DNA of 64,000 nt from an uncultured Collinsella sp. Lineage in GTDB: Bacteria; Actinomycetota; Coriobacteriia; Coriobacteriales; Coriobacteriaceae. Positions 46,572-64,000 of this stretch are shown here, in pieces. Both the position numbers and the translations under genes were made by a program. How positions within the stretch are numbered: the first letter of the stretch is position 1; every line of letters begins with the position of its first letter. Below the pieces are notes generated by a model. The model did no database searches, had not been told where the DNA came from, and saw nothing but the letters and a program-made list of their open reading frames with translations. The stretch spans positions 52,347 to 116,346 of the forward strand of contig CAJKCG010000001.1 of the NCBI GenBank assembly GCA_905198355.1. The letters run 5' to 3'.

Positions 46572-47246
46572 TTAGACGACAGCCTTCTTTCTTATTTCTT
46601 TTAGTAAGCCTTTTTTAAACGCAGTACTACCACCAAAAAACTTCTGGTCAGTATTAGTCTGCTTATTCGCCTGATATTTCAGACTCGTGAACTCAATGGT
46701 ACAGATATAGTCCACAGCCTGAGCCAAATAGTAATCCGATGAAGTTGTTGGCTTATAGATAACTGCATTTTTAGCCAAAGCGTAATCGATTGCCTTGTGA
46801 AGCGCGCTCGAAACCGAACCCTGTCCTCCGTCGTAGTAAATCTTCACAGCATCAAACTGCTGAAACCAACTCAAATTATCGAATATGAAATCGATGATTT
46901 CACGCCGCATCGCATCAGCGATCTGTTTGAGAGTTCGATACCGATGCGTCTTGAATACAAACACCTTGTACGAGATGGGCAAATGTCGAAACATAACTCG
47001 AAATAGTGAAAACAGCCTTTTTCTCTCACTGATGTCCAAGTCCTTGAACTGATCTTTTCCATTCATGAGAGGAGAAGCATGGAACGGAAGGAGCGGCAAT
47101 CCGCTATCGGCTACCGCCCTTTCATATTTCTCTATTCCCTCAGCGATGGGAATATTTTGTTCATGAAAAACAAAGGCCACAAGATAGTATCTTTCACGAA
47201 GATCATCGCTTCCAGATTCATCAATAAAGATACTCAGCTCTCGCAT
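46572..47246 (-). CDS. DUF3800-family protein
   Basis: 224 aa from ATG with AAGGA RBS; N-terminal LSIFIDESGS motif. The gene and its flanks are markedly AT-rich versus the genome. Confidence 0.6.
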   Translation of the reverse strand: MRELSIFIDESGSDDLRERYYLVAFVFHEQNIPIAEGIEKYERAVADSGLPLLPFHASPLMNGKDQFKDLDISERKRLFSLFRVMFRHLPISYKVFVFKTHRYRTLKQIADAMRREIIDFIFDNLSWFQQFDAVKIYYDGGQGSVSSALHKAIDYALAKNAVIYKPTTSSDYYLAQAVDYICTIEFTSLKYQANKQTNTDQKFFGGSTAFKKGLLKEIRKKAVV

Positions 47247-47261
47247 GGGCAATCCTTAATA

Positions 47262-47290
47262 AAAAAGCCGGGGAAAACGTCCCCGGCACT
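47262..47290 (-). terminator. rho-independent terminator closing the BREX operon
   Basis: Minus strand GCCGGGGACGTTTTCCCCGGC followed by TTTTTTATTA. Confidence 0.6.
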
Positions 47291-47401
47291 TGGAAGCCCT
47301 CTCTTAAGAGATGACCACCTAATTTATACCATGAAGTTGGACGTATATTCAAGCATGAGTATAAAATACAAACATATGTTCGTCAATAGCAAAGGTGGCC
47401 A

Positions 47402-47599
47402 TCATTCAGCGTCGTCATCGGCGGCAAAGTCGCGGAGGTCGAGGCCTTCGCGTTCGGCTCGGGCTAGGAGCTCTTGAGGTGACTCGTCCTCGATATCCAT
47501 CACGTCGAGCATAGCGGCCGGAAAACCCACGCCTGCCGCACTCCCCGCGCGGTCGAGCAGGCTCTCGCGCAACTGGTCTACATCAACTTCGATTTTCAT
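47402..47599 (-). CDS. small acidic protein (65 aa), BREX-linked, unknown function
   Basis: GC-rich ORF with BREX-like codon usage, 28 bp downstream of the 450-aa gene. Confidence 0.4.
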   Translation of the reverse strand: MKIEVDVDQLRESLLDRAGSAAGVGFPAAMLDVMDIEDESPQELLARAEREGLDLRDFAADDDAE

Positions 47600-47626
47600 G
47601 GTGAAACCTCCTACCGGGCCAGGGCC

Positions 47627-48979
47627 TTACTCACCAGCACTGAGCTCATCCACGGCAGCAACAAAAGCAGCCACCTGGTTGTCGTCCATCTGCGCGGCCA
47701 GGCGCCCCACGGGCTCGTCGTAGGCAAACTGTACTTTATCGATAAAGCAATCCCAGGCACGCTCATCCACACGCACGGCGGCCTCGCAATACTGGCTGAG
47801 CTTTTTGAGTCCATACCAAAACGCATTCACATGGCGCGCAGGATCCTCATCCAGCACCCCATCGTAGCGCCGACCGTTAAACTCACGCATGCGCGCCACG
47901 GCAACCTCGAGCGAGTCGCCGCCGTCGGCCGAAGCCTCGTCCACAAGCTCGGGAATCGCAACCTCGCGCCGGACATTGTGCCTGGTAGCACCGTCGTACT
48001 CGCCCACCAACACGTCTTCGTCAAACCGATCATCGTAGTCGAAATAACTGCTGCCCCGGCAAATCCCATGCAGCGAACCGGTGCCAAAGGCACGGAACAA
48101 CCCGCCATCGGCAACAACGCACCTATAAGTCTCAAACGACTTCTTAACCTGAGCGAGCAACTCGGAAAGCTCTCCGGCATCGCACCCCGTCTCGCACGCG
48201 ACGCAAGCAGACTTCGGCAACGATACCGGCTCCACCGTGCTCCCTGCAACGCGGGCAGCGCGCTCGGCCCGATACGCTTGGGCTGCCAAGCGCGCTCGCT
48301 GCGCAGCACCGCGCACATTAGTAAGCTCGCGCTCCAGCGCCACATCGCCAGCCACATCGCTCGCAAACGCGTCAGCACCCTGCGGGCCGGTCGCACTCAG
48401 CTCGGACTCAAACGTCGCCGTGATCATGCCGGCAAGGTCCGTTGCGTCGGCGGCACAACGCAGCTGCTCCAACTGCGTGCACAGCAGATCGGCATCCAGG
48501 GGCACCGCATCCACAACGCACACGTCACTCAGACGCACCGCGCCCTGCAGCACCAAAGCCCCCGCAGCATCGTACGCCGCACGAACCCTGTCCGCCGTAT
48601 TGGCACGCAGCTTTACCTCGATAAACGCAAGCGTCTGCTCCAAGCGGGCCAACAGCTCGGCCTTGTCCTCCATACGCAAAAAGGCAGCGTAGCGCCGCTC
48701 CATCTGCAACGGGCCCACAACGCCCATCTGCTTGCGAGCCCGCGCAAGCGACTCGGCTTCAACGCGGCGCACATACCCGTCAACGGCCTGCACGGCAGAC
48801 TCACGCGCAGCACGCTCGGCAGACTCGACGCCCTCGATCACGGCCAGCAGCTCGCGGGAGCGCGCCTTGCGCACCAACTCCCCGCGGTCGTACTGCTCAA
48901 GCGCCGCCTGACGCTTGGCTACCGACTCAAAGCCAAACAGCTCGTCGAGCAGCTCGCCAACAGAACGTTCTTCCGCCAT
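47627..48979 (-). CDS. 450-aa protein of unknown function, immediately downstream of brxL
   Basis: Long GC-rich ORF, co-oriented, 94 bp after brxL. No motif I can assign; CVACETGC and CRGSSYFDYDD segments. Confidence 0.5.
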   Translation of the reverse strand: MAEERSVGELLDELFGFESVAKRQAALEQYDRGELVRKARSRELLAVIEGVESAERAARESAVQAVDGYVRRVEAESLARARKQMGVVGPLQMERRYAAFLRMEDKAELLARLEQTLAFIEVKLRANTADRVRAAYDAAGALVLQGAVRLSDVCVVDAVPLDADLLCTQLEQLRCAADATDLAGMITATFESELSATGPQGADAFASDVAGDVALERELTNVRGAAQRARLAAQAYRAERAARVAGSTVEPVSLPKSACVACETGCDAGELSELLAQVKKSFETYRCVVADGGLFRAFGTGSLHGICRGSSYFDYDDRFDEDVLVGEYDGATRHNVRREVAIPELVDEASADGGDSLEVAVARMREFNGRRYDGVLDEDPARHVNAFWYGLKKLSQYCEAAVRVDERAWDCFIDKVQFAYDEPVGRLAAQMDDNQVAAFVAAVDELSAGE

Positions 48980-51447: not shown

Positions 51448-54156
51448 CTAAAAACCAAAGTCAGCAACAGGGGCAAACGAAACAGCGATGGTGTACGTCT
51501 CGCGCCAAACGATCTTGCCCGTCTCGCGCTCGCGGCAGACCAGATAGTACGGACCCTTGGCCGAGAATCCATCCGCTGCATGCAACGCAAACTTGGCATG
51601 CACCACGCGCTCCTGCGAGTTAACAGAAGTCTTGCTGGCATGCGCCTTGACCGTATCGCTCACCTCGTTGCCACTTGCATCGGTAAACACCAGCTCGTAC
51701 TCGCACGGCAAGACCTTACCTTGGGCAGGCTCTTCCTGGATCAAGTTGACCGAGAAGAGCGAGTTGGTCACTCGGCGTCCCTCGCTTAGCACGCGCAGCG
51801 TCGCCGCGCGCGTGTCGACAAAGTCCTTGGAACCCGAGCGCGCACGCCAAAAACCGATAACGGGCACGCAGAGCTCCTGCAGGCTCATGCCGCCGTGGAC
51901 GTAGTTGTTAGTGCCGCCGGGACGCTTGAAGTGCACGTTCTCGCGCGGGGCAAACCCCTCAAAACCGGCGCCCAAACGTCCCATGTTAACATTAACAAAC
52001 ACCCCGCATGCCTCTTCCGAAAGCTTGGCCACGGCCTCGTTGGGTACCACCAGATGACGCTTGCCGTGCATGACAGGAGCGTCAAGGAAGGGAAGGTCTG
52101 GCTTGCCGAGCATCTGGCACTCGCTGAGCTCCCGACGCGTGTAGATAAAGCCGTGGTCCGCCGTTATAACAACACGGGCGCCCGGGGCGTCGGTGCACAC
52201 GCGACGCGCCAACGCAGCAAGTTCCTCCACGGTGTCCGCACAGGCATCGAAGACGTCATCCTGCGTAGCGGCCTTCTCGCCCGTAGCATCGATCTTGTTG
52301 TGGTAGAGATAAACGAGCTTGGAGTCCTTGAGCAGCGCCTTGCGCTCGGTTCCCGCCATGTTGAGGTATGCGCTCGAGCGCAAAGCGCGGCCCGTAGACT
52401 CAACGTTGGCAAGCACGGCCTCGCGCTGCGGAGTCGTCGAAGTGGGCATGCCGTCAGCCAGCACGTACGTGCCATCCGCTGCAAGCCCAAGCGCCTGGTG
52501 CGGCAGCAGCGCGGGCATACCCACCTCGGTAATGGAGGGAAAGACCGCCTGCATGCTAGAGACCTTGACGTTGCCGCCGCGCTCGCGCTCGAGCAGCGCC
52601 GCAACGTCGCGGGCCACCTCATAGCGCAGCGCGTCGCTCACGATAACGACCGTCGTTTTGGTAGAGCCCACAAAGGTGGGCAGTACATGCCAGTAGAATT
52701 CATCCTGCCGTGCGGGACCCTCGATGTAGCCGCAATCGGCCCACTCCCCTTGCGCAGCGGTCGCCCAGCATGCATTAGCATCGGCCAAGAACCAGTTACT
52801 GTAAAGATTCTCCGCCCAGTCCACCACAGCTCGGGCAGGCTCCTCGAGCACATCGCACTCGACGGAACGCGCCCGCAGATACGCGGTGCACACATGGCGA
52901 TAGGCAGCGTCCATGGCATACCAATCGGACGTGTAGGCATCCCACACCTGCTGGGGCTGCGCCAGATGGAACCCGCCCGCATGCGCCTGCCTAAACGCAC
53001 ACATATCGGCCACAGCGACAAGCAGGTCAAAGTAGCTCTTGACACGGCGGTACCAGCTCAGGTCGCAGCGACGCGACGCAAAAGTGCGCGCGTCCTCAAC
53101 ACGGTCCGCACCCTGAGCAAACGAGCTGAACAGCTGCGAGAGCACGGCCTCATTGACGCACGGGAACACATCAAGCGAGGCTAGCACATCGATCGGCAGA
53201 GCCTCAAACCGCGCAAAGAGCCCGCGAGCATCCTCCACCAAACGGCAGATCTCAAATAAATCCTCGCTCGACGCCTGAGCATCAGCAGTCTGGTCCCACG
53301 TACGCACTGCCTCAAGGCAATAGGGTCCGTAGGCGGGAGCCACATAGCTTTCGAGTCCCTTGAGCGCTCCCTCGGGAAGCGCGGTGGATGACGCCGTGAT
53401 GAGCATATGGGATGCCAGCGCAAGCAGCGAATCACGCTCATACAGCGGCCCCTCAAACCCATAGCAACGTACAATGAAGGCAGAGAGGACATCGCGCACG
53501 CAGTACTTGTCCACCAACTCGGCCAGCGCTTCGGGGCCCTCGTGCAGCAGCGTGGTCATACAGCCGCGCAGCACAAACGCGGGGCGCGCGTCGCCAAGCT
53601 CTTTACCGCCAAAAATCACCGTAAGGGTGCCGAGTTCGATATCGGATGCGCCCGAGGCATGCGGAACACACGCGGCAAACTTAGCGCAACGGGTCTTGGC
53701 ATCAAAGAACGTCTTGTGCTCGCGCAGGCTCTCGCGCACGGCGTCGATATTCTCGATGCCCAGCTGATCGGCCAAAAGCGAAAGATAGTCAGCCTGGAAC
53801 TGATCTGCATACAGCTCAACATCGGCAAGCCAATCACCCTCAAGCCTGCCGCGCGGGCAACGGCGATACAGCAAGATATCGCTCGCAAGGTCATCGCGGT
53901 TGATGAGCTTCTTAACGGCAAACATGTGGCCCTCGCAGGCCTCAACAAAGCGCACTGGGCGCTCAAAGTCACCGTGAGCGGGCATAACGCCGTCATCGGC
54001 CCCCGCGCCGTCGAAACCCTCGGCAGCCAATCGCTCAAACTCAGGAGCAAACTCGCCGTCCGCATCGTGCCAAATCACCACACGGCGCAGCATACATGCG
54101 GGCAACGGCTGCAAAAAACGCAGCTTGAGCTGTTCTTCTACATCGATCTTGGGCAT
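51448..54156 (-). CDS. pglZ: BREX alkaline-phosphatase-superfamily protein PglZ
   Basis: 902 aa; TVVIVSDALRYE PglZ-domain signature. Confidence 0.8.
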   Translation of the reverse strand: MPKIDVEEQLKLRFLQPLPACMLRRVVIWHDADGEFAPEFERLAAEGFDGAGADDGVMPAHGDFERPVRFVEACEGHMFAVKKLINRDDLASDILLYRRCPRGRLEGDWLADVELYADQFQADYLSLLADQLGIENIDAVRESLREHKTFFDAKTRCAKFAACVPHASGASDIELGTLTVIFGGKELGDARPAFVLRGCMTTLLHEGPEALAELVDKYCVRDVLSAFIVRCYGFEGPLYERDSLLALASHMLITASSTALPEGALKGLESYVAPAYGPYCLEAVRTWDQTADAQASSEDLFEICRLVEDARGLFARFEALPIDVLASLDVFPCVNEAVLSQLFSSFAQGADRVEDARTFASRRCDLSWYRRVKSYFDLLVAVADMCAFRQAHAGGFHLAQPQQVWDAYTSDWYAMDAAYRHVCTAYLRARSVECDVLEEPARAVVDWAENLYSNWFLADANACWATAAQGEWADCGYIEGPARQDEFYWHVLPTFVGSTKTTVVIVSDALRYEVARDVAALLERERGGNVKVSSMQAVFPSITEVGMPALLPHQALGLAADGTYVLADGMPTSTTPQREAVLANVESTGRALRSSAYLNMAGTERKALLKDSKLVYLYHNKIDATGEKAATQDDVFDACADTVEELAALARRVCTDAPGARVVITADHGFIYTRRELSECQMLGKPDLPFLDAPVMHGKRHLVVPNEAVAKLSEEACGVFVNVNMGRLGAGFEGFAPRENVHFKRPGGTNNYVHGGMSLQELCVPVIGFWRARSGSKDFVDTRAATLRVLSEGRRVTNSLFSVNLIQEEPAQGKVLPCEYELVFTDASGNEVSDTVKAHASKTSVNSQERVVHAKFALHAADGFSAKGPYYLVCRERETGKIVWRETYTIAVSFAPVADFGF

Positions 54157-54179
54157 GAATATCCTTACCGTATTTGCAG

Positions 54180-55148
54180 TTACTTAATCTTTGCCAGCAC
54201 ATCCTGAAACTTGGCGTAGTTGACCTTGACGCCGTCATCCAGGTCGATCTTGATCATCTGGTCTGCCAAGTGGTGAAGTTTCTCTTCATAGACAATGGTC
54301 TCTTTGAGCTGGTCGTTGAGCTTTTTGACGCGCTTATCCAAACGCACGCGCTCGCCGCGCTCGGCACTGGCAAGGGCATCGTTGGCATAGCCGATCTGGG
54401 CACGGTAGCGCTCCTGCTGCTCATGCACATAGTCGGTGCGGATGCGAGCCAACAGGTCGGGCTGATAGCGATGCATGTAAACAAGGCACTTGAAGCCATT
54501 CTTCTTGCCACTGTCGAACAGCCAGTAGATGGGGCGCTTCTTATAGGTCTGACAGTGGTCCTTAAAGAAATCCTTTAGGAAATAGGCACGAATCACCTCG
54601 CGCGAGGTACCCTTGCCGCCGAGCGCCTCGGCACTAAAGGCCAGGTTCTGCTCGAGCGTCTCCTCGCCATACACAGTGCGCACAAAGTCGATAAAGTAAC
54701 GCACGATGTCGTCATCAAAGTACTCGTCGTCGGTAATCGGCAGCACGTTGTCGCTATCGGGCATAAAGGCCACATGCGCCGGGTCGGGCATCTTGGCCAG
54801 ATAGTCGTTGACCGTGGCACCCTGATCGGCCAAGACCAGACCGTCCACGTCCAGCGAATAGCGGCCAAACATGCAGCCCACGGCATAGCTTATGAGCGAG
54901 GTGATCTCGTCGCGCTTAGTGCGCACGTATTTGTTGCCCTTATAGCTCTCGGGAATCTCGTCGGCGGTGTCGAAGATGCGCGCCACCGAGACGTACTTAT
55001 CCTCGACCTCGATGGGCACCTCCCCCTCCATGTTGTAGATCTTGGCAAAGATTCGGTTGAGCTCCTCCTCGTTAGCGCGAAGCTGCTCAAAGCGAGCATT
55101 AACCTCGGCCTTGCGGGCCTCGTATTTATCTTGAAGCAAAGTGGCCAT
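54180..55148 (-). CDS. pglX: PglX C-terminal fragment (last ~320 aa of the BREX methyltransferase)
   Basis: ...RPIYWLFDSGKKNGFKCLVYMHRYQPD... C-terminal PglX signature. Only 6 sense codons lie upstream before a stop. Own RBS GAAAGG. Confidence 0.65.
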   Translation of the reverse strand: MATLLQDKYEARKAEVNARFEQLRANEEELNRIFAKIYNMEGEVPIEVEDKYVSVARIFDTADEIPESYKGNKYVRTKRDEITSLISYAVGCMFGRYSLDVDGLVLADQGATVNDYLAKMPDPAHVAFMPDSDNVLPITDDEYFDDDIVRYFIDFVRTVYGEETLEQNLAFSAEALGGKGTSREVIRAYFLKDFFKDHCQTYKKRPIYWLFDSGKKNGFKCLVYMHRYQPDLLARIRTDYVHEQQERYRAQIGYANDALASAERGERVRLDKRVKKLNDQLKETIVYEEKLHHLADQMIKIDLDDGVKVNYAKFQDVLAKIK

Positions 55149-55324
55149 AACTACAGACCTTTCAATTTATCAATACAGTAGAAGTTAGAAAACCCGAGCC
55201 CATTCCATCAATCAATTAACACCAAGACTCGTGAGCTGAAAAACAGCGAAAGCCTTCCGATGCTCGACCGATATCTTCAGGACAAGTCTGGCTATCAATA
55301 AATCCCATAAGTGAGAGACGACAA

Positions 55325-55915
55325 CTACAATAAAGTCAATAAAAGATGGGACAGAAAAACGAATGCCATGATTAACGACAGAACAGTCAGGCCAGTTGAT
55401 ATTTTCAATCGCTTCCACATGTTGTTATGTTTCAAAAGGTAAGCCCGATAGGTAATGTTTAGGGAAGAGCAGTAGGACTTAAGCAAGTCCCGTTCCCTAA
55501 TTTGCCCGCCCTCGTCGCAAGCCTCTTTGTAAGTAGTCGAATACCTATCAAATTGTTCAGAAGGAGATGCGAGTGCAATATTGCTCCTTAAAAATATTGC
55601 ACTGACAGCTATAACAAGAGCACAGCCAAGAAGACCAAGAAGAATCAAATAGACAAACAGTATTTGCCTCGTTGAAATCCCATAAACTTCCTCAAGACCT
55701 TGAATATTTGAAATATAGTCGAGAGGTGCCAGGTACGCAACGGACAGAATCGTGATGGTAACCATAAGGTTATCAACGTAGCGATTTAAGCTATCCCCCC
55801 TCTCTTTTTCAAATTCAAGTGAGGAAAGAACAATGTCTCTCAAGTAATCGCTAATCTGCCCCTCCTTGGAGAGAGCGCTTTTATCGACGTCATGTCGCTT
55901 GTTCTTTTTGCCCAT
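55325..55915 (-). CDS. 3-TM membrane protein encoded in the AT-rich insertion within pglX (candidate abortive-infection-type effector)
   Basis: 196 aa from ATG with AAAGGTGA RBS; TM helices at ~55-70, ~95-118 and the C-terminus; region ~37% GC. Confidence 0.5.
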   Translation of the reverse strand: MGKKNKRHDVDKSALSKEGQISDYLRDIVLSSLEFEKERGDSLNRYVDNLMVTITILSVAYLAPLDYISNIQGLEEVYGISTRQILFVYLILLGLLGCALVIAVSAIFLRSNIALASPSEQFDRYSTTYKEACDEGGQIRERDLLKSYCSSLNITYRAYLLKHNNMWKRLKISTGLTVLSLIMAFVFLSHLLLTLL

Positions 55916-55926
55916 GAAAGTCACCT

Positions 55927-56076
55927 TTACTACTTGGTTTTTCGATCAGGTAAACCCGCCGGTTTTTCATAAGTAAATTGCGTTAACCTTGTTATGGGTC
56001 CAGGAATCGTGACCGGCTTCTTTGCTCCCGCCCCTTCATCTTTTCTTTTCTTGTCATCTTTCTTTTTTTCAGACAT
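55927..56076 (-). CDS. Lys-rich 49-aa peptide (manual call, low confidence)
   Basis: MSEKKKDDKKRKDEGAGAKKPVTIPGP...; first ORF after the PglX N-fragment stop, inside the AT-rich insertion; weak RBS. Confidence 0.25.
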
Positions 56077-56144
56077 ATTTAATTTCAATCCAATCTATCC
56101 AATGACGTTCTTTTGTTAAAGATAGGTGAGTCCTAACAAGACAG

Positions 56145-58661
56145 CTAAATTAAAGGATGACGCTTGAAATCCCAAGAAGTTTCAAACGAGTCATAGTCAG
56201 CCTTTGAAATTGAGCGAGAGTCTTCAACGAGTGAACAAACAGTCGGTTCGGCGGCCTTATCTTGGATGATCGGTAACTGACCGATTTGGCCTACCTCAAA
56301 GTTTAGAGTCGGCGACATAAACGCCAAATCAATTTCGGCAATGGAACAGTTGCAGAAAGCCTGGATGTATCGAAGCTCGTTCGGCTCCGCAAAAAGACAT
56401 GCTCCAGCTACCTCAAAAAGCATCCCTCGAGGTGCAAACCTAAAGGAGGCGAGGCTGGAAGAAATTTTAGACCAGGAAACTGCGGGCTTGAAATAGTCGT
56501 TCTGGTTCTTGATCACAAAATCAGGTGTAGAGAGATAGGCATACTTGGACAGAATTGCCTCCTTCATCTCCCGACCGTCATCAAACCAATTAACCACCTC
56601 ATCGTAGTCACCCCACCACTTTCGATAGGAGCCGCCCCGAATAATCGGAAACCAACGGGAACCACTTTGCTTTGCCTCGGGCCTGCCACTGCAATCTCGC
56701 GATGTGTTGGAAGGCACCACTTCCCACCATTTCCTCAAAAAGCGGCCATTATCGCTCGTCGCCAAGCCCTGTCGCGGAGTAGCAATGGCATCGAGCCTCT
56801 TTCCTTTTGTGAACGATTCAACAAGAGCATCGCTGGCCCAGTAGGCTATGGGGCTGCCGGGGATCTGCTTGAAGGTCTCGGCGTCGCGGCGATAGAACCA
56901 GCCGCAGTCGGGGTTTCGGATCGCCTCGAGGGCCTTGGGAGCCTGGACAGCGGCGCCAACGAAGTCAGAAAGGCGCACGTAGCCTCCCTTGTAGCCCTTG
57001 ATGAGTGAGTTGTGAAACGTGTAGGTGCAGATGGGCACAGTCGCGCCAGCGAAGCCCGAGTACTCAAGTTGAATGAGGGAGGTAAGCGTTCTGTTGTCGA
57101 TAATCTCGTTGCGGAGCTTCTCATAGCTTCCGATGAACATCCAGACGAAAGGCGACATGACTCCGCACTCGCCGTGGTCCTTGGCGAGACTGAACATGCG
57201 AACGACAAAGCTGGAGAAGAGGTCGCTCTTCACGTCGGGGTAGTTCTTCTTGACCCACTTGCTCATAAAGGGGTTAAAGCTGCTGCTGCCCATATACGGA
57301 GGATTCGCCACGACGCAGGTAAAACGACGGGACAGTTTCTCGCAGATGGCGGCAGCGCATTCGAGCTTAGTTTTAGTCGCAGAAGCAAAAAGATCGTCGG
57401 AACAGCTCACGGCGGCGGCCTTAAGCTCGTCAATCTCGTCCTCTGAAGGATTAAGAAGCGAGCCGATCTCGCCCAAATGACTCAGCTCCTCGGCGAGCTT
57501 CTTGTTACCCGGCAGCTCGTCCTCCCCAAGCGGGATGCTCGAGAGCACGGTAACGTCGGCGCGAACGCCACGCCTAAAGAAGCGACGGTCGTGCTCGCGG
57601 GCGCACATGGCAAGCGCCAGCTCCGCGATCTGTGCCGCGCGGGAATCGATTTCCATACCTGCAAGGTTTTTAGTAAGAATGAGCTCGGGAATCTCGCGCT
57701 CACGATAGCCGCGCTCCTCGTACATATGAAAGAGCAGCTCAAACGCATAGACCAAGATATGGCCCGAGCCGCATACGGGGTCGCAGAGGGTTATCTCCTC
57801 GGGGCTCGAGATGCGGATGAAGTCCTCGTGCTCAGCATCGGGCTCGATGTAGTATTTCATGCGCTCGCGTAGCGAACTCCCCGGATTGTTGAGCATCCAC
57901 AGACGGCCGAGCGAGTTCTCGACCATATAGCGCACGATCCACTCGGGGGTGAAGAGCTGAGTGGCGGGAGCGATGTCCGCCGCTGCGGCCTTGCGCTTGG
58001 ACTTGAAGAACTCGTCTTTAACGTCAGCGTTGTAGTACTGATACATCCAGCCCAGAACGGTCACGCCCTCGCGCCAGTCCTCGTCAGTGAGGACAACATT
58101 GAGTTTGCCCACCACGCCGTCGGCCATCATGAGGCCCTGGGGCAACAGCAACTCCATGGCTCCGCCTACGCGATCAAAGACGCCTGGCAGGCAATCGGCA
58201 AGCTCCTCGCACTGAGCAACAAACAGGTAGCGCCACAACGGTTCATCCAAGCCCGCCATTTTGAGCTCGGCTATGCGATCGGTATCGGCCGTCGTTATCT
58301 CCACATCCAGTGCGTTCTCCACGGCCTCGCTGCCATGGCTGCCGTCCGCACGACTTAGCATGCGCATACGGCTGGGAAGCCATCCGCGTGCATCCATGAA
58401 GCGAATGGCCACGATGCGGTTGAACCAGGTGTAGGCCGCACGGTCGCGCAGCGCCTCGTGACCCACCTCTGCCTGCATGCGCAGTAGTTCGTCGCGTTGC
58501 TCAATCTCAGCCGGACTTAGGGGCAGGCCGTTGACGGTCTCGGAGCCAACGGGCGCGGGTGCAGGTTCGGTGATGCCGTAGCGCACCATCTGCGCCTCCA
58601 CGCCTTTGATGAGCTCCGTACGGGCCCAGGTGCAGAAACTCTTAAGAGCAGAATCGTTCAT
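56145..58661 (-). CDS. pglX: PglX N-terminal fragment (N6-adenine methyltransferase domain)
   Basis: 838 aa; VVANPPY catalytic motif and DPVCGSGH SAM-binding motif; ends ...ETSWDFKRHPLI followed by a stop. Confidence 0.8.
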   Translation of the reverse strand: MNDSALKSFCTWARTELIKGVEAQMVRYGITEPAPAPVGSETVNGLPLSPAEIEQRDELLRMQAEVGHEALRDRAAYTWFNRIVAIRFMDARGWLPSRMRMLSRADGSHGSEAVENALDVEITTADTDRIAELKMAGLDEPLWRYLFVAQCEELADCLPGVFDRVGGAMELLLPQGLMMADGVVGKLNVVLTDEDWREGVTVLGWMYQYYNADVKDEFFKSKRKAAAADIAPATQLFTPEWIVRYMVENSLGRLWMLNNPGSSLRERMKYYIEPDAEHEDFIRISSPEEITLCDPVCGSGHILVYAFELLFHMYEERGYREREIPELILTKNLAGMEIDSRAAQIAELALAMCAREHDRRFFRRGVRADVTVLSSIPLGEDELPGNKKLAEELSHLGEIGSLLNPSEDEIDELKAAAVSCSDDLFASATKTKLECAAAICEKLSRRFTCVVANPPYMGSSSFNPFMSKWVKKNYPDVKSDLFSSFVVRMFSLAKDHGECGVMSPFVWMFIGSYEKLRNEIIDNRTLTSLIQLEYSGFAGATVPICTYTFHNSLIKGYKGGYVRLSDFVGAAVQAPKALEAIRNPDCGWFYRRDAETFKQIPGSPIAYWASDALVESFTKGKRLDAIATPRQGLATSDNGRFLRKWWEVVPSNTSRDCSGRPEAKQSGSRWFPIIRGGSYRKWWGDYDEVVNWFDDGREMKEAILSKYAYLSTPDFVIKNQNDYFKPAVSWSKISSSLASFRFAPRGMLFEVAGACLFAEPNELRYIQAFCNCSIAEIDLAFMSPTLNFEVGQIGQLPIIQDKAAEPTVCSLVEDSRSISKADYDSFETSWDFKRHPLI

Positions 58662-58727
58662 GGTTGATGAGCCTTTCTAAACGCCATAAACCACCGGTGC
58701 GCGCTTTGGCACCGATGGCTCCGCGGG

Positions 58728-61700
58728 TTAGTTGATACGGATCTCGTCGTTTGCAGCGAGCGCCTGCATAAGGCGAGAGCGCAGGTCGTCCACGTAGTGC
58801 TCCACGTCCTCTGCGGACAAGAGACGACTCGGCTTGGCCAGATCGGCGCGGCGCACGGTCTTAATCTTGCGCTGGGGCACGGGTGTAGGCGTGGGCGCGG
58901 ACGCAGACAACGCGGCTCCCTTGCTGGAGACCTTCTTGACCACCTCACCCGTACTCGTGACCTCGGTGGTGCGGTGCTCGTTGTCCATACGCGCGCGAGC
59001 CTCATCCACAGCGTCGTACATCTCATTGGCTGCCACACTGAGCCAGTCGCCCCAGTTAGTTGCAACAACGCTCAGTTCGTTGAGACTTTGAGCGCTGTGG
59101 GCACGGTTTTTGAACGACTCGTATTTGGTGCCGGCGCCTGCTATGGCATCCTTGGCCTGATTGACAAAGCCCTTTTGGCTCTCGGCCTGCGCCCGCAGGT
59201 CTTGCAGATCGCTCTCGATGCGACACAAAAACTCATTGCGGCGGATGCCCAACAGCTTTTTCATGTCGTCCTCGACGGGATCCATAAGCGGCTGCAGGTC
59301 TTTAATATGGCCGTAGGGCTTGGGATCTTTGAGGATCTCGCGCACCTTTGCCACGTTCTTCACCGCGTCGGGAATGTCATCGGAGGCATACTCGATACCC
59401 TCGGTGCGGCTCAAGAAATCCTTGGCGTGGTCAAACGCTGTTCGTTGGTTGGACCCGAAGAACTCAACCACCCTGTCAAAGTCTTCCTTGGCATCGAGCA
59501 GGCGGTCCTCATGCTTGGTAAACGTAGTCAAGAACGCCTCGGCCTCGTTCTGGTCCTTAAGGACGTCGGCCACCTCCGAGCGCATCTTCTCGCACTCGCC
59601 CTCACCGGGATACGGGTAGGCCGGCTTGATGCCCGTGTAGTAGTCGCGTGCCATGGCGACGCACACCTCACGCAAGTCCTCAAGGCGCTCCTTGAGCTCG
59701 GCCACGAGCTTATCCTCGTTGGAGGGCACGGTCTTGAGATCAAACAGGTCGCGCATGAGCTCACCCGCACCGCTCAGCAAACGGTCGTTCATGCGCACGC
59801 GCAAGCGCACCTGGGCCTTATCGGCATCCTTGCGCAGGAGTGCTACCATGCGGCTGTCGTTAGCTTGAACCGTCTGACCGCCAAACAGCACCTGCGCGCG
59901 CTGCTCCACCACAAGCTGCGCCACCACATTTGCGATATCGACCTCGCGCCAGCCAAAGGGCCTTTGCTGGTACTGGCGCTGGATATCGCCCATAGCGGTA
60001 TCCAGGTGGCGCTGGTGCTGAACTTTGAGGTAGTCCTCGACCTCCTTGAGCGCACGCGTGTTGCCCGCGTCCATGCCAGCGAGCCCCGCCTGGACGTTGC
60101 CCGCCAGAGTGGAGCGGATATCGGAATCGCTCGTGACCGGCGCGCCGATATAGTCGGCCTTTTCAAAGACTACATCGCACAGCTGCGCCAGCACCTGCTC
60201 AAAGACCTGGGCGGGCTTGGTCGCGCGGACCTCAACCATGCGGCCGTTGACTGCACAACGTGCATGGAGCACGGCCTCGCTCAAAAGGGTATCGGCCTCC
60301 TTCTCGTTATAGGCCGCCTCGCGCATCTTGGACTCGACGATCTGGCGCGTACTCAGCTGAAGCTCCTGGAGATTTCGCGTCTTGGCGTACTTGCGGATCT
60401 TGGCGGCCCTGACGAGCGTCTCCCAATAATCCGCCTCGTCACTCAAGGCCACGATGGCTTTGCCCGAAGAAGCCAAAGCCAGCTCGGTATCGTCCGCACG
60501 GCCCAGGTCGCTCGCCATAGTCGCCACGTAAAGCTCCATGCCGCCCATGCTGGTACCGTGGATTGAGCCGTCCACATAGCGGTCAAACGGGAAGTCGTTG
60601 GCCCCGCGATTGAGCTTGCGCGCGGTGTAGATGCTGTCGAACAGGCGCTTTTTGATAGACTCGATCACCTGCGCGTTGTCGATCGGGGTGCGTGCGATCT
60701 CCTGCGCTATCTCCTGCTCCTCGTCGGTGAGGAAGCTATAGGTATCGCCCTGGCGTGCCACGTAGTTCTCGCGCTCCAAACGGGCGAGGGATTCCTTGAC
60801 GCGGTCCTTGAGGGCGCGCTTGTCCACGTCGAGGCTATCGATCATGAGGATGGAGATGTTCTCGACCGTGGCCTTGACGTAGCCGATGTAGCGGATCAAG
60901 TACAGGAGCTTAAGCACCCGGACATCGTAGCTCTCAAGACCCTCTGCGTTTTCAGCCGCGCGCTCCGCACAGACGACGACTTGAATGATGCCGTGCTCCA
61001 AATCCTTGGAGATTGTGTCGAAGAAGCGCCAGAACGGCACGAGTGCACCAGTCTGGTCATGCTGGATGGCCTGAGCGCTCTCCTGAAACGCGCTCAGCAT
61101 GGAGCGCTCGCCCGTGGACATGTGCTTGGCCTTAACACCATGCTTGCGTACCTCGGTCATCACGTCGGGCAGAAGCTTAAACTGGTAGCCCACAAACGGG
61201 TAGCTGGCCACAAAATCCTTGGAGTTGGCGAAGCCGGCAAGGTCGGAGCGCGAGCCCCCCTCAAAGGTAAAGTTGTTTTTGAGGACGGCGGCGTCTTGCT
61301 CGTAGACCTGTGCAAGCGTATCGGCCGCCGGCGCGGTCTTCTCGAGCACACGGCGTTGGATGACCTCGTCCACGCTGGAGCTGGAGAGCGAAAGGCGGGT
61401 ATTGAAACGGCCCTGGATCTTTGAAAAGTCGTTGCCCACGGGCAGGCTCAGGTTGTCGATGGCCTCCTGGCTCGTGACCATCACCCACACGCGGCCACCG
61501 CAGGCGGCACCCAGCTCCTCGACGATGGTCTGAAGGCTCAGCATAAGGCTTGGGTCCTGGTCGTTTGTAATAAACTGACCCACCTCGTCGACCATAAAGA
61601 GCAAACGGAAGTTGCCACCGTGGGCCGCTGCCTGAGCGTCCACGTAATCCTTGACCTTTTTGGCAAAGACATCGGGGGCCAAAACCTCGTCCTCAGAACC

Positions 61701-62474: not shown

Positions 62475-63167
62475 TTACGAGATATCGATGGCGCGGTAGT
62501 AGTTGTCGGCCGGCAGACGGTTAAAGAGCTGGAAAGAAGAGCCGTTGAAACTGCCCGGATAGGCGGCGACCACAGGCACCTCATCAAAATCCGCAAGCAT
62601 GCAATGGAGAAGCGTGTGCATGCGAAAGAATGGGAAGACCTCGCCCGCGCCGGTGAGGAGAACGACGTCTCCAGGCGCGTACGGCTTGGTCTGCTCAAGG
62701 ATGTACGCGGCGACTTTCTCGGGCGAGGCGAACTTGGCCACGTCCTCGAGCACGCGCTGGGTACCGCGGCGCTCCTCTTGGTGCGGGATAGCCTTGAGGA
62801 CACGGCGCTTTTCGAGAATTGCCAGCACGGCGTCGTAGAGGTTCACGACCTTGAGCGTGCACGGAAGCTTGTCGGCCTCGGCATCGCGTGAAAGGGTGTC
62901 AAATAATGCACGCGCCTCAAACTCCAGCGCGGGGTCATAGCAAAAGGTGTGGAAGCCGATCTCATTGCCTATGCCCTTGTTAGCCAAAAAGTCCTCGCTG
63001 CACAGGCATTCGCGCAGAAGCTGCGCGCGGCGCTCAAATTCCTGACAGGCGTGCTGAGAGCGGACATGCGCCGCCACGACGCTCTTACGGGAATGGATGC
63101 CGATATTGGTGGTGAAATCGGTCGCCGGGGTGATAGCAGGTTCGGCGGCGCTGTTGACGGGAGCCAC
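62475..63167 (-). CDS. brxB: BrxB (DUF1788-like)
   Basis: 230 aa; position and size in the operon; stop/start coupling with brxA. Confidence 0.55.
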   Translation of the reverse strand: MAPVNSAAEPAITPATDFTTNIGIHSRKSVVAAHVRSQHACQEFERRAQLLRECLCSEDFLANKGIGNEIGFHTFCYDPALEFEARALFDTLSRDAEADKLPCTLKVVNLYDAVLAILEKRRVLKAIPHQEERRGTQRVLEDVAKFASPEKVAAYILEQTKPYAPGDVVLLTGAGEVFPFFRMHTLLHCMLADFDEVPVVAAYPGSFNGSSFQLFNRLPADNYYRAIDIS

Positions 63168-63168
63168 G

Positions 63169-63786
63169 CTACATCACCACCCTGCCGGTAAGGGCCGCGA
63201 TAAGCGACTGCTCGCCCAGCAGAACCAAGGCTCGCTCGAAATCGGAATCGAGGAAGAGTGGTGACAGACGCTCGGACTCCGGGCCCTGGCCCTCGCCGAT
63301 AAGGCCGGCATGGCGGAGCGTCTGGCGGAGCGAGCCCTTAATGCGCTTGACCGTGGCCTCAGTCCAGCGGGCCGCGTCCGGATACTCCGTGGTAAAGCGT
63401 GTCATAAAGGCATTGAGGTCAACCGCCGTAAAGGCATAATCGAAGTTTTGTAGGCGCTCCCCTACCTCGACGAGCACGAGCTCGCGCACGATATCGTAGC
63501 GGCAGATCATGCTGTAGAAGATGGCCTGGTCCGCCTGCGTGGGAGTGCCGGATGCCATGAGCCTGGTTAGGGATGACACAGCCTCGACGGCGATATTGGA
63601 GTCGATGCCACGCACGGCGCATGCGGCGTCCGTGGGCACCATGGCGTCGAGGCGTCGAAGGCACACGGTTGCGCGGTTGGCGACCATGCGCTCCGTGGGA
63701 TATTGAAAGAGGTTCTCGCTCTTTACGCGTACAATGACCTGCTCGTCGCTTGCGCCCTGCATACGAAGGGCAGCGACGATGCGCAT
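63169..63786 (-). CDS. brxA: BrxA (DUF1819-like)
   Basis: ~205 aa from ATG at 63786. The ORF-track start (GTG at 63819) abuts the G10 tract. First gene of the operon. Confidence 0.55.
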   Translation of the reverse strand: MRIVAALRMQGASDEQVIVRVKSENLFQYPTERMVANRATVCLRRLDAMVPTDAACAVRGIDSNIAVEAVSSLTRLMASGTPTQADQAIFYSMICRYDIVRELVLVEVGERLQNFDYAFTAVDLNAFMTRFTTEYPDAARWTEATVKRIKGSLRQTLRHAGLIGEGQGPESERLSPLFLDSDFERALVLLGEQSLIAALTGRVVM

Positions 63787-63818
63787 CTCATGCGGGAGGA
63801 ATTGCTCGCGGGTGAGCA

Positions 63819-63828
63819 CCCCCCCCCC
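63819..63828. repeat. homopolymeric C10 (G10 on the brxA coding strand)
   Basis: Seen directly, at the 5' boundary of the brxA ORF. Confidence 0.9.
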
Positions 63829-64000
63829 GAACGCTTTTTGTGGTTATATCCACAGTACACGCTCCAAGGGTGTCAAAGGCTGTCACAAGTGCGCCGCAAC
63901 CCGGCAGGCAGGTGCGGCGCACATGACAATAATCATACCTGTTGGTAAAAAAGTTACCACGCCCAGAGTGTCAAATGTTGAGCAACAAAATTAAATCCGG

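Follow-up and report, generated by a model that had tools for sequence, protein, structure and literature searches.

Among the closest described systems is Pgl (phage growth limitation) in S. coelicolor A3(2), a type 2 member of the bacteriophage exclusion (BREX) family, in which a G tract in pglX is described as phase-varying, with G8 as the ON state and switching rates of 1e-2 to 1e-4 (Sumby & Smith 2003; PMC4365076). Homopolymer contingency loci near the 5' ends of open reading frames (ORFs) are known from the poly-G tract of Neisseria lgt (PMC2192423) and the poly-G genes of Campylobacter jejuni (PMC5808241). For type 1 BREX, phase variation has been described through inversion or a shufflon of pglX and through disruption of pglX (PMC9881135; Goldfarb 2015, cited in PMC9122589). 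A homopolymer in brxX has also been pointed out as something that might allow BREX to phase-vary (PMC6326788). Here we analysed a run of ten Gs at the 5' end of brxA, which opens a type 1 BREX operon, in a 64,000-nucleotide stretch of DNA from an uncultured Collinsella sp. of the C. aerofaciens complex (contig CAJKCG010000001.1, positions 52,347 to 116,346). We refer to the whole stretch as the window and give all coordinates as window positions. A first-pass annotation had proposed the run as a phase-variable BREX switch. We consider it probable (roughly 0.7) that the run is a hypermutable homopolymer within the 5' end of brxA that acts as a slippage switch for this gene and that the allele in the window is out of frame. 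Collinsella commonly occurs in the human gut as a commensal, and next to nothing is known of how its phage defence is regulated.

Like the Pgl tract, the Collinsella run is a poly-G tract inside a gene of a BREX-family phage-defence locus in an actinobacterium, a change of one G shifts the frame, and expansions as well as contractions are seen. The proposed purpose is also the same, namely to switch a costly or toxic defence on and off. The Pgl tract lies in the pglX methyltransferase gene of a type 2 system, whereas the Collinsella tract lies in brxA, the first type 1 gene, 25 nt after the start; the pglX gene of the window, like the rest of it, is free of other G/C runs of seven or more and thus lacks a homopolymer of the Pgl type. 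For Pgl both switching rates and phenotype were measured, whereas for Collinsella the variation is between strains only. With the Neisseria and Campylobacter loci the tract shares an uninterrupted early-coding run of 8 to 13 Gs, a length that is decoupled from phylogeny, a modal length of about G9 to G10 and frame classes that define ON and OFF. It differs from them in its host, a Gram-positive high-GC gut commensal (Coriobacteriia) in which such loci are little documented, in its target, which is a cytoplasmic defence operon and not a surface structure, and in the in-frame GTG after the tract, a possible restart site. As in the cases of pglX inversion and disruption the activity of a type 1 BREX system would be heterogeneous across the population, and the pglX gene of the window is itself disrupted. 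However, those mechanisms use site-specific recombination or change the specificity domain, whereas the brxA case would be slippage during replication and in another gene; we saw no recombinase gene in the operon. Our literature search returned nothing on a tract in brxA or on BREX in Collinsella, although its coverage was incomplete and the result is absence of evidence only. Judged by its sequence, the brxA tract is a classical homopolymer contingency locus. The mechanism is classical; new are its target gene and its host, how strong the population evidence is, and that the tract recurs across lineages.

The tract is located on the minus strand at 63828..63819 and is thus seen as C10 on the plus strand (63819-63828). 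It is the sole G/C run of at least seven in the window, where the second-longest run has a length of six. A first-order Markov model predicts 0.13 runs of at least ten. Assuming independent and identically distributed bases we would expect 23 G/C runs of at least seven, compared to the single one observed, and long G/C runs are therefore strongly avoided in the window. Around the tract the minus strand reads ...CACAAAAAGCGTTC-GGGGGGGGGG-TGCTCACCCGCGAGCAA... The first-pass annotation had correctly described the run of ten Gs on the coding strand, the longest ORF (63819..63169, minus strand, 216 aa), whose opening GTG takes the last G of the tract as its first base, and the first in-frame ATG (63784..63786, minus strand) 33 nt downstream of that start. 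The 216-aa product shows a significant profile match over most of its length to the Pfam family BrxA/DUF1819 (PF08849; E = 5e-32, residues 2-198 against profile positions 7-180 of 184), to which it thus belongs, and is identical to the RefSeq entry WP_117639691.1, 'BrxA family protein [unclassified Collinsella]'.

Comparison with homologous sequences places the tract within the ancestral brxA ORF, at codons 9-12 and 25 nt downstream of a conserved GTG at 63853-63851. The reasons are a homologous start, an Arg-Gly-Gly (R-G-G) extension and one extra base relative to the in-frame relatives. All BrxA homologs at 40-59% identity (alignment A1: Collinsella sp. KGMB02528, Paratractidigestivibacter faecalis, Anaerotardibacter muris and uncultured relatives) have an N-terminal extension of ∼11 residues with the pattern M-[D/E/A]-x-x-x-[K/R]-x-x-[R/L]-G-G, followed by [V/S/A]-LTREQFL, and in this alignment LTREQFL is the most conserved stretch of the protein. 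The tract-free relatives begin 11 codons upstream, behind the same GGAG-N8-GTG that we find in the window. Their DNA shows a −10-like element GGTATCAT, then ccttGGAGcgtg, an 8-nt spacer, a GTG or TTG start, eight codons and the G-G residues, and ccttGGAGcgtg-N-GTG is kept in every lineage compared. The corresponding start of a 227-aa BrxA in the window (63851..63853, minus strand) matches the homologous GTG or TTG with which the relatives begin, and its Shine-Dalgarno (SD) sequence GGAG (63862..63865, minus strand) lies 8 nt upstream and is invariant in 108 haplotypes. The relatives write the Gly-Gly in ordinary codons (CGA GGA GGG and AGA GGC GGT for R-G-G, CTG GGA GGC for L-G-G). In the window the homologous stretch is cccttGGAGcgtgtactGTG GAT ATA ACC ACA AAA AGC GTT C-G10-TG, and with nine Gs it encodes M-D-I-T-T-K-S-V-R-G-G-V-L-T-R-E-Q-F with R-G-G as CGG GGG GGG, so that the run occupies codons 9-12 of the ancestral frame (C-GG GGG GGG G-TG at G9). 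In alignment A2, read without row L193, the window has exactly one base more than every in-frame relative. The few substitutions in the eight upstream codons (GAT>GAC, GTT>GTC, ATA<>GTA, GAT>GAA) are either synonymous or conservative when read in this frame and are radical when read in the other. Furthermore, the gene caller chose the conserved start and a product of 227 aa for a contig with G9 (L001), the protein-cluster representative is the 227-aa form, and residue 20 of the solved homolog 3BHW aligns with residue 20 of the 227-aa form, the match to 7ZGE and 3BHW being weak. We also looked up the isoforms predicted for G6, G8, G9, G11 and G12 of the window haplotype in the protein collection and found no exact match to any of them; among the forms of this haplotype only the 216-aa one was present.

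The consequences of tract length follow from these positions. At G10 the frame opened by the conserved start (63788..63853, minus strand) yields only a 21-aa peptide, VDITTKSVRGGGAHPRAIPPA, which ends at the TGA at 63790-63788, and the brxA frame is blocked upstream by a TAA at 63846-63844. The GTG at 63853-63851 is in frame with brxA at G6, G9 and G12 and only then; another GTG at 63860-63858 is in frame at G8 and G11. The window has a tract of length 3n+1 and hence an out-of-frame allele, one G over the in-frame length. The locus thus combines two features of homopolymer contingency loci, a run of about seven or more inside an ORF or promoter and a length whose changes put the start codon in or out of frame with the rest of the gene. 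The first-pass annotation had the tract immediately 5' of the brxA reading frame, a wording that is valid solely for this out-of-frame allele and otherwise misleading, as the ancestral ORF contains the tract. For the same reason the tract does not belong to a leader or promoter that precedes brxA. Nor does its length toggle the frame of the internal GTG (63819-63817), which uses the last G of the tract and forms at any length; it is the conserved start upstream that shifts. The ATG at 63786-63784 follows the TGA of the frameshifted peptide by 1 nt (UGAGAUG), and a product begun there would be without the invariant LTREQFL motif. In genomes with G10, brxA is called at 63169..63819 (minus strand) as 216 aa from the internal GTG, without the 11 N-terminal residues. 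RefSeq and gene callers record this internal-start ORF in out-of-frame genomes, hiding the true start and the frameshift.

We then compared the tract length between strains. We collected loci through look-ups of the exact protein, through a gapped DNA pattern run against metagenome contigs and through a protein-guided scan of one genome for each GTDB species. The metagenome sample consists of 73 human-gut contigs and the GTDB sample of 80 Collinsella genomes (80 of 560 genome hits). After pooling and de-duplication we obtained 164 Collinsella loci, for which the tract lengths were taken from the assembly consensus sequences. G10 is found in 107 of the 164 loci (65%) and G9 in 26 (16%), followed by G11 (11 loci), G8 (8), G7 (4), G13 (3), G6 (2) and G12 (1); two loci have shorter remnants (G5, G3). 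For the 73 metagenome contigs we counted 45 with G10, 14 with G9, six with G8, four with G11, three with G7 and one with an interrupted tract. The 80 GTDB species representatives cover G6 to G13, and cultured isolates show G7, G8, G9, G10, G11 and G13. Isolates and genomes with different alleles include Collinsella sp. AF33-16 (G7), MGYG-HGUT-00257 (G8), C. aerofaciens 2201st1_A5 (G9), OM04-5 and TF05-9AC (both G10), CLA-SR-H006 (G11) and CLA-ER-H2 (G13). Strain comparison had been named by the first-pass annotation as a check of its proposal, and with lengths from G3 to G13 the tract is clearly not invariant.

A non-modal length was observed in 57 of the 164 loci. In the same contigs a T6 run in non-coding DNA 124 nt upstream differed in 3 of 133 (2%), and all six of the 5-base control runs (A5, C5, G5, T5) were constant. 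At the same time the tract is uninterrupted in 161 of the 164 loci, although the flanks diverge by up to 22%. We computed a neighbour-joining tree of the 1600-nt flanks for 121 non-redundant loci (median divergence 3.3%, maximum 22%). Parsimony on this tree requires 37 changes of tract length, where shuffled tips give a mean of 36.2 and the maximum possible is 38. Six pairs of loci with identical 1600-nt flanks carry different tract lengths, which is the difference between close strains that marks a contingency locus. As there is no phylogenetic signal and even loci with identical flanks differ, tract length is fully decoupled from ancestry, the signature of a very high slippage rate.

Another indication comes from other BrxA lineages. 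In the genes of the window GGG accounts for 10% of the Gly codons and CGG for 5.7% of the Arg codons. Given this local codon usage the chance that R-G-G is written CGG GGG GGG is ∼6e-4. No fewer than three other BrxA lineages have the run at these same codons, which makes at least four in total. The P0051/P0048 lineage shows G10 and G8 and is polymorphic like that of the window, the P0039 lineage has G6 (one contig) and the P0036 lineage has G9 followed by GTA (one contig). Given this GTA after the tract, the device does not depend on the internal GTG. The tract-bearing lineages are not mutually closest: P0051 is 72% identical to the tract-free KGMB02528 lineage and only 54% to the lineage of the window. 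As they do not group together, the tract has been gained or lost several times. On the codon and lineage data the recurrence argues for selection on the nucleotide sequence, the alternative being a mutational bias at a G-rich R-G-G motif. A wider reading, which we offer tentatively and would put somewhat below even odds, is that of a selected switch that evolved repeatedly: several Coriobacteriia BREX lineages would independently have rewritten the Arg-Gly-Gly codons of brxA to G9-G10, the operon would be under stochastic control through its first gene, most gut Collinsella cells would be one slip from ON (G10) and hold a standby, bet-hedged defence, and a second, truncated BrxA isoform might be made from the GTG. 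If true, this would be the first simple sequence repeat (SSR) switch described in brxA and a natural genetic handle on BrxA and its N-terminus. The contrast between a tract and ordinary codons at the same site across lineages could also serve as a comparative signature for contingency loci in high-GC Gram-positives.

The switch that we favour would work as follows. Translation would normally initiate at the GTG at 63853-63851 behind the GGAG, and as codons 9-11 (Arg-Gly-Gly) are CGG GGG GGG and a GTG follows, the in-frame state is a run of nine Gs. Slipped-strand mispairing during replication would add or remove Gs. G9 (and also G6 or G12) yields the full 227-aa BrxA, with G10, G7 or G13 the frame ends after 21 codons, and with G8 or G11 after ∼44 codons. 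With its G10 the window has the conserved start uncoupled from the body of BrxA, and we expect out-of-frame alleles to reduce BrxA strongly. The brxB gene (62475..63167, minus strand) starts 1 nt after the brxA stop (TAG-C-GTG) and, judging from this spacing, is likely to be translationally coupled to brxA. The frameshifted peptide ends ∼620 nt before the brxA stop and brxB start. Given this early end and the stop and start codons 1 nt apart, a switch in the first gene could govern the whole operon: the loss of translational coupling together with Rho-type polarity would lower the expression of brxB and the downstream genes, and out-of-frame alleles would lower or switch off BREX methylation and defence. 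Switching would be reversible within clones. Ribosomes may still initiate to some extent at the internal GTG (63819), for which the G run could stand in as ribosome binding site (RBS), leading to a leaky OFF state or a truncated isoform. In Acinetobacter BREX, BrxA is needed for methylation and restriction (PMC9122589).

If such a switch operates in the first BREX gene, defence and self-methylation would differ from cell to cell. Consequences would be expected for phage-host dynamics, horizontal gene transfer and methylome differences between strains in the gut. Furthermore, the alleles G7 to G13 form a natural allelic series, with the 11-residue N-terminus present or absent, for probing the still unclear role of BrxA.

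Several observations weigh against this reading. The out-of-frame G10 is the majority allele (65%), with only ∼18% of the loci in the in-frame class, and this majority fits 'OFF by default, one slip from ON' and 'G10 adequate via the internal GTG' equally well. The internal GTG is present at every length and the G-rich sequence before it is a possible SD sequence, so the OFF state may not be null. The neighbouring leader is also >97% conserved, and tract purity alone is thus not evidence of selection for mutability. Some of the G9, G10 and G11 calls in low-coverage assemblies could be consensus errors. With its pglX split, the BREX system of this lineage may be inactive or altered, in which case the state of the tract may have no consequence here. 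Finally, in the BREX system of E. coli HS BrxA is dispensable for both defence and methylation (PMC6326788), and loss of BrxA alone may therefore not switch BREX off.

There are other possible reasons for the variation and for the position of the tract. BrxA might always be translated from the internal GTG at 63819 with the G run as its RBS, in which case tract length would add an 11-residue extension at G9 and tune the amount of protein. This is the nearest surviving form of the earlier idea, in which the tract would modulate initiation at this codon. The internal GTG does form at any tract length, GGGGG is able to pair with the anti-SD sequence through one G·U wobble, and G10 to G13 give a spacing of 4-7 nt, so that a longer run has the better spacing and the commonest allele, G10, falls within the range. 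The 216-aa product also retains the whole Pfam BrxA domain, and a GTG stands directly after the tract in three of the four tract-bearing lineages compared to one of the three tract-free lineages examined at the DNA level. However, the internal start is not conserved, as one tract-bearing lineage has GTA and two genomes (L148, L163) have GGG in its place. Moreover, ribosomes coming from the strong conserved start would cross the internal GTG in another frame, the predicted fold pairs the G run with a downstream CCUCCC, and the conservation of the N-terminal extension across genera implies that it is important. We therefore regard control of isoform or level through the internal start as unlikely.

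It would also be conceivable that the tract is a neutral mutational hotspot in a decaying locus, where the run slips, nothing depends on its length and BREX is being lost. The interrupted pglX in the lineage of the window, the out-of-frame state of most assemblies and the foreign DNA fused to a shortened tract in four assemblies would all agree with decay. On the other hand, BrxA and BrxB are conserved, with identical proteins in dozens of contigs, and a decaying gene would gather other lesions, of which we saw none in brxA. A neutral run would also not be expected to stay uninterrupted in nearly all loci over such divergent flanks, or to recur in rare codons in lineages that do not group together, and we consider this explanation distinctly improbable. 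Least credible to us is that there is one true tract length and that the variation is caused by homopolymer errors in sequencing or assembly. Many contigs do stem from low-coverage Illumina metagenomes (1.5-6x in several contig names) and differences of ±1 dominate. However, isolate genomes, among them assemblies with 23x and 75x coverage, range from G7 to G13. Consensus errors do not typically amount to 3 nt, variation of the T6 control is limited to 2% of the contigs, and for the same strain lineage independent samples concur in G10. Assembly error fails to explain the 3-nt differences in well-covered isolates, although it may add to the ±1 calls in thin metagenomes. Weighed against these alternatives, the slippage switch within brxA remains our preferred reading. 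The first-pass proposal of a phase-variable BREX switch is partly right: the tract is hypervariable between strains, which makes such a switch a reasonable reading, and it belongs to the first BREX gene, but it is intragenic, the upstream boxes are not −35 elements and the allele of the window is out of frame.

Some loci show unusual sequences at or near the tract. In the genomes L148 and L163 (Collinsella sp. CAG:166 and HGM04261; tract region ∼2490-2505) it reads TTC-G13-CTCACC. Here the T of the internal GTG is changed to G, whereby the start codon is lost and the run lengthened, and the tract is in frame with the alternative GTG at 63860-63858. The sole interrupted tract among the contigs is G11-A-GG (L020:515-558), possibly a stabilised allele. 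In L154 (1-40) the first 27 nt of the contig are the reverse complement of a normal stretch ∼220 nt upstream and are joined to G9; this junction is probably an assembly chimera at the homopolymer, with an inversion as the alternative. A G6 run in brxC, 2568 nt downstream of the tract in L002 coordinates, is G7 in 1 of 16 contigs with matching flanks, which reflects either a further, minor site of slippage or an error of assembly. In four independent assemblies (L008:1-40, L132:1-60, L136:1-145 and L139:1-60) the normal upstream region of brxA is replaced by foreign sequence. It ends in ...CCATCGAAATTTATCG(A/G)TGG-CC(T/C)A(T/C)TTCAGACTGTAAT with a perfect subterminal hairpin and is fused directly to a shortened tract (G3-G6), the contigs ending at most 139 nt upstream. 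The foreign sequence was found neither in the window nor elsewhere in the fetched loci, its other junction was not found, and it looks like a repeated mobile element that inserted in the tract.

The assignment of the tract to the first gene of a BREX operon, made by the first-pass annotation, is borne out by the type 1 gene set brxA-brxB-brxC-pglX-pglZ-brxL, which Pfam and PADLOC profiles identify in this order on the minus strand from 63819 to 49073. Downstream of brxB it comprises brxC (62396-58728), pglX in two parts, pglZ (54156-51448) and brxL (51445-49073). Type 1 BREX has an intact PglX, whereas here the gene is split into an N-terminal part (58661-56145, 838 aa, profile positions 1-869 of 1174) and a C-terminal part (55148-54180, 322 aa, profile positions 877-1170 of 1174), both on the minus strand. 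Between them lies an insert of ∼1 kb (∼55149-56144) with 40% GC, compared to 55-60% in the flanks. The insert contains a 199-aa hydrophobic ORF (55924-55325, minus strand) with no match in NCBIfam, Pfam or PADLOC, and an Rfam search of 53800-58800 found no intron at E <= 1. The same split is present in all contigs of the strain lineage of the window (L196, L197). Exact look-ups of BrxC and PglZ, aimed at pglX in other strains, matched only this same lineage. Directly after brxL (46572-48979, minus strand) we observed a 450-aa ORF with no match in Pfam, NCBIfam or PADLOC and then a DUF3800 protein, perhaps accessory genes of a defence island.

Upstream of the tract there are two copies of TTTGACACYCTKGG, each with a TTGACA, which the first-pass annotation had located correctly and taken for −35-like promoter elements. 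Box 2 (TTTGACACCCTTGG, 63864..63877, minus strand) lies in the leader and overlaps the SD sequence. Box 1 (TTTGACACTCTGGG, 63962..63975, minus strand) is conserved within the lineage and lacking in relatives. The window has no further match beyond these two, with 0 expected from shuffles, and the similarity extends to a 19-nt direct repeat with 79% identity and 98-nt spacing. The best −10 candidate is likely the TATGAT at 63932..63937 (minus strand), judged by conservation only: it lies within an invariant CCAACAGGTATGAT that reads GGTATCAT in relatives. The transcription start predicted from it would fall near 63925, ∼7 nt downstream of TATGAT. We rejected the boxes as −35 elements, as their spacing to any −10 is wrong and box 1 is missing in relatives. 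Box 1 lies 31 nt upstream of TATGAT, and for box 2, which contains the SD sequence, the sole possible −10 is TATAAC (22-nt spacer), which in most strains is TGTAAC. The two boxes may represent a lineage-specific duplication or a pair of sites for protein binding. A consensus scan of the full intergenic region found no sigma-70-like promoter and no terminator. SSR switches in promoters and leaders, with spacer tracts between −35 and −10, resemble the brxA locus in having a homopolymer near the operon start. However, the brxA tract is neither between nor beside such hexamers; it lies downstream of the start codon and ∼76 nt downstream of the −10-like element.

Conservation across the 108 haplotypes amounts to 97-100% over the 170 nt upstream of the tract, compared to 84-94% further upstream. 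The presumed 5' leader contains a GC-rich hairpin (63889..63922, minus strand; GTGCGCCGCA-N14-TGCGGCGCAC) with a stem of 10-13 bp, a loop of 14 nt and no T-run after it, and P. faecalis has a different hairpin at the same leader position. The brxA leader folds better than shuffled sequences (z = −3.3). Rfam gave no match at E <= 1 to a known RNA element in the leader (L002, 1650-2450) or to an intron at the odd junction of L136. A perfect palindrome, TGGTAA-CTTTT-TTACCA, at 63943-63959 (minus strand) covers the −35 position relative to TATGAT and from its sequence looks like an operator, with no regulator gene evident adjacent to it. Beyond the end of the window, other assemblies continue with a divergent 57-aa ORF and then serC/serA-like genes. 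This ORF (L002:1834-2007) and its surroundings show a column conservation of 84-94% with indels, compared to 97-100% for the brxA leader.

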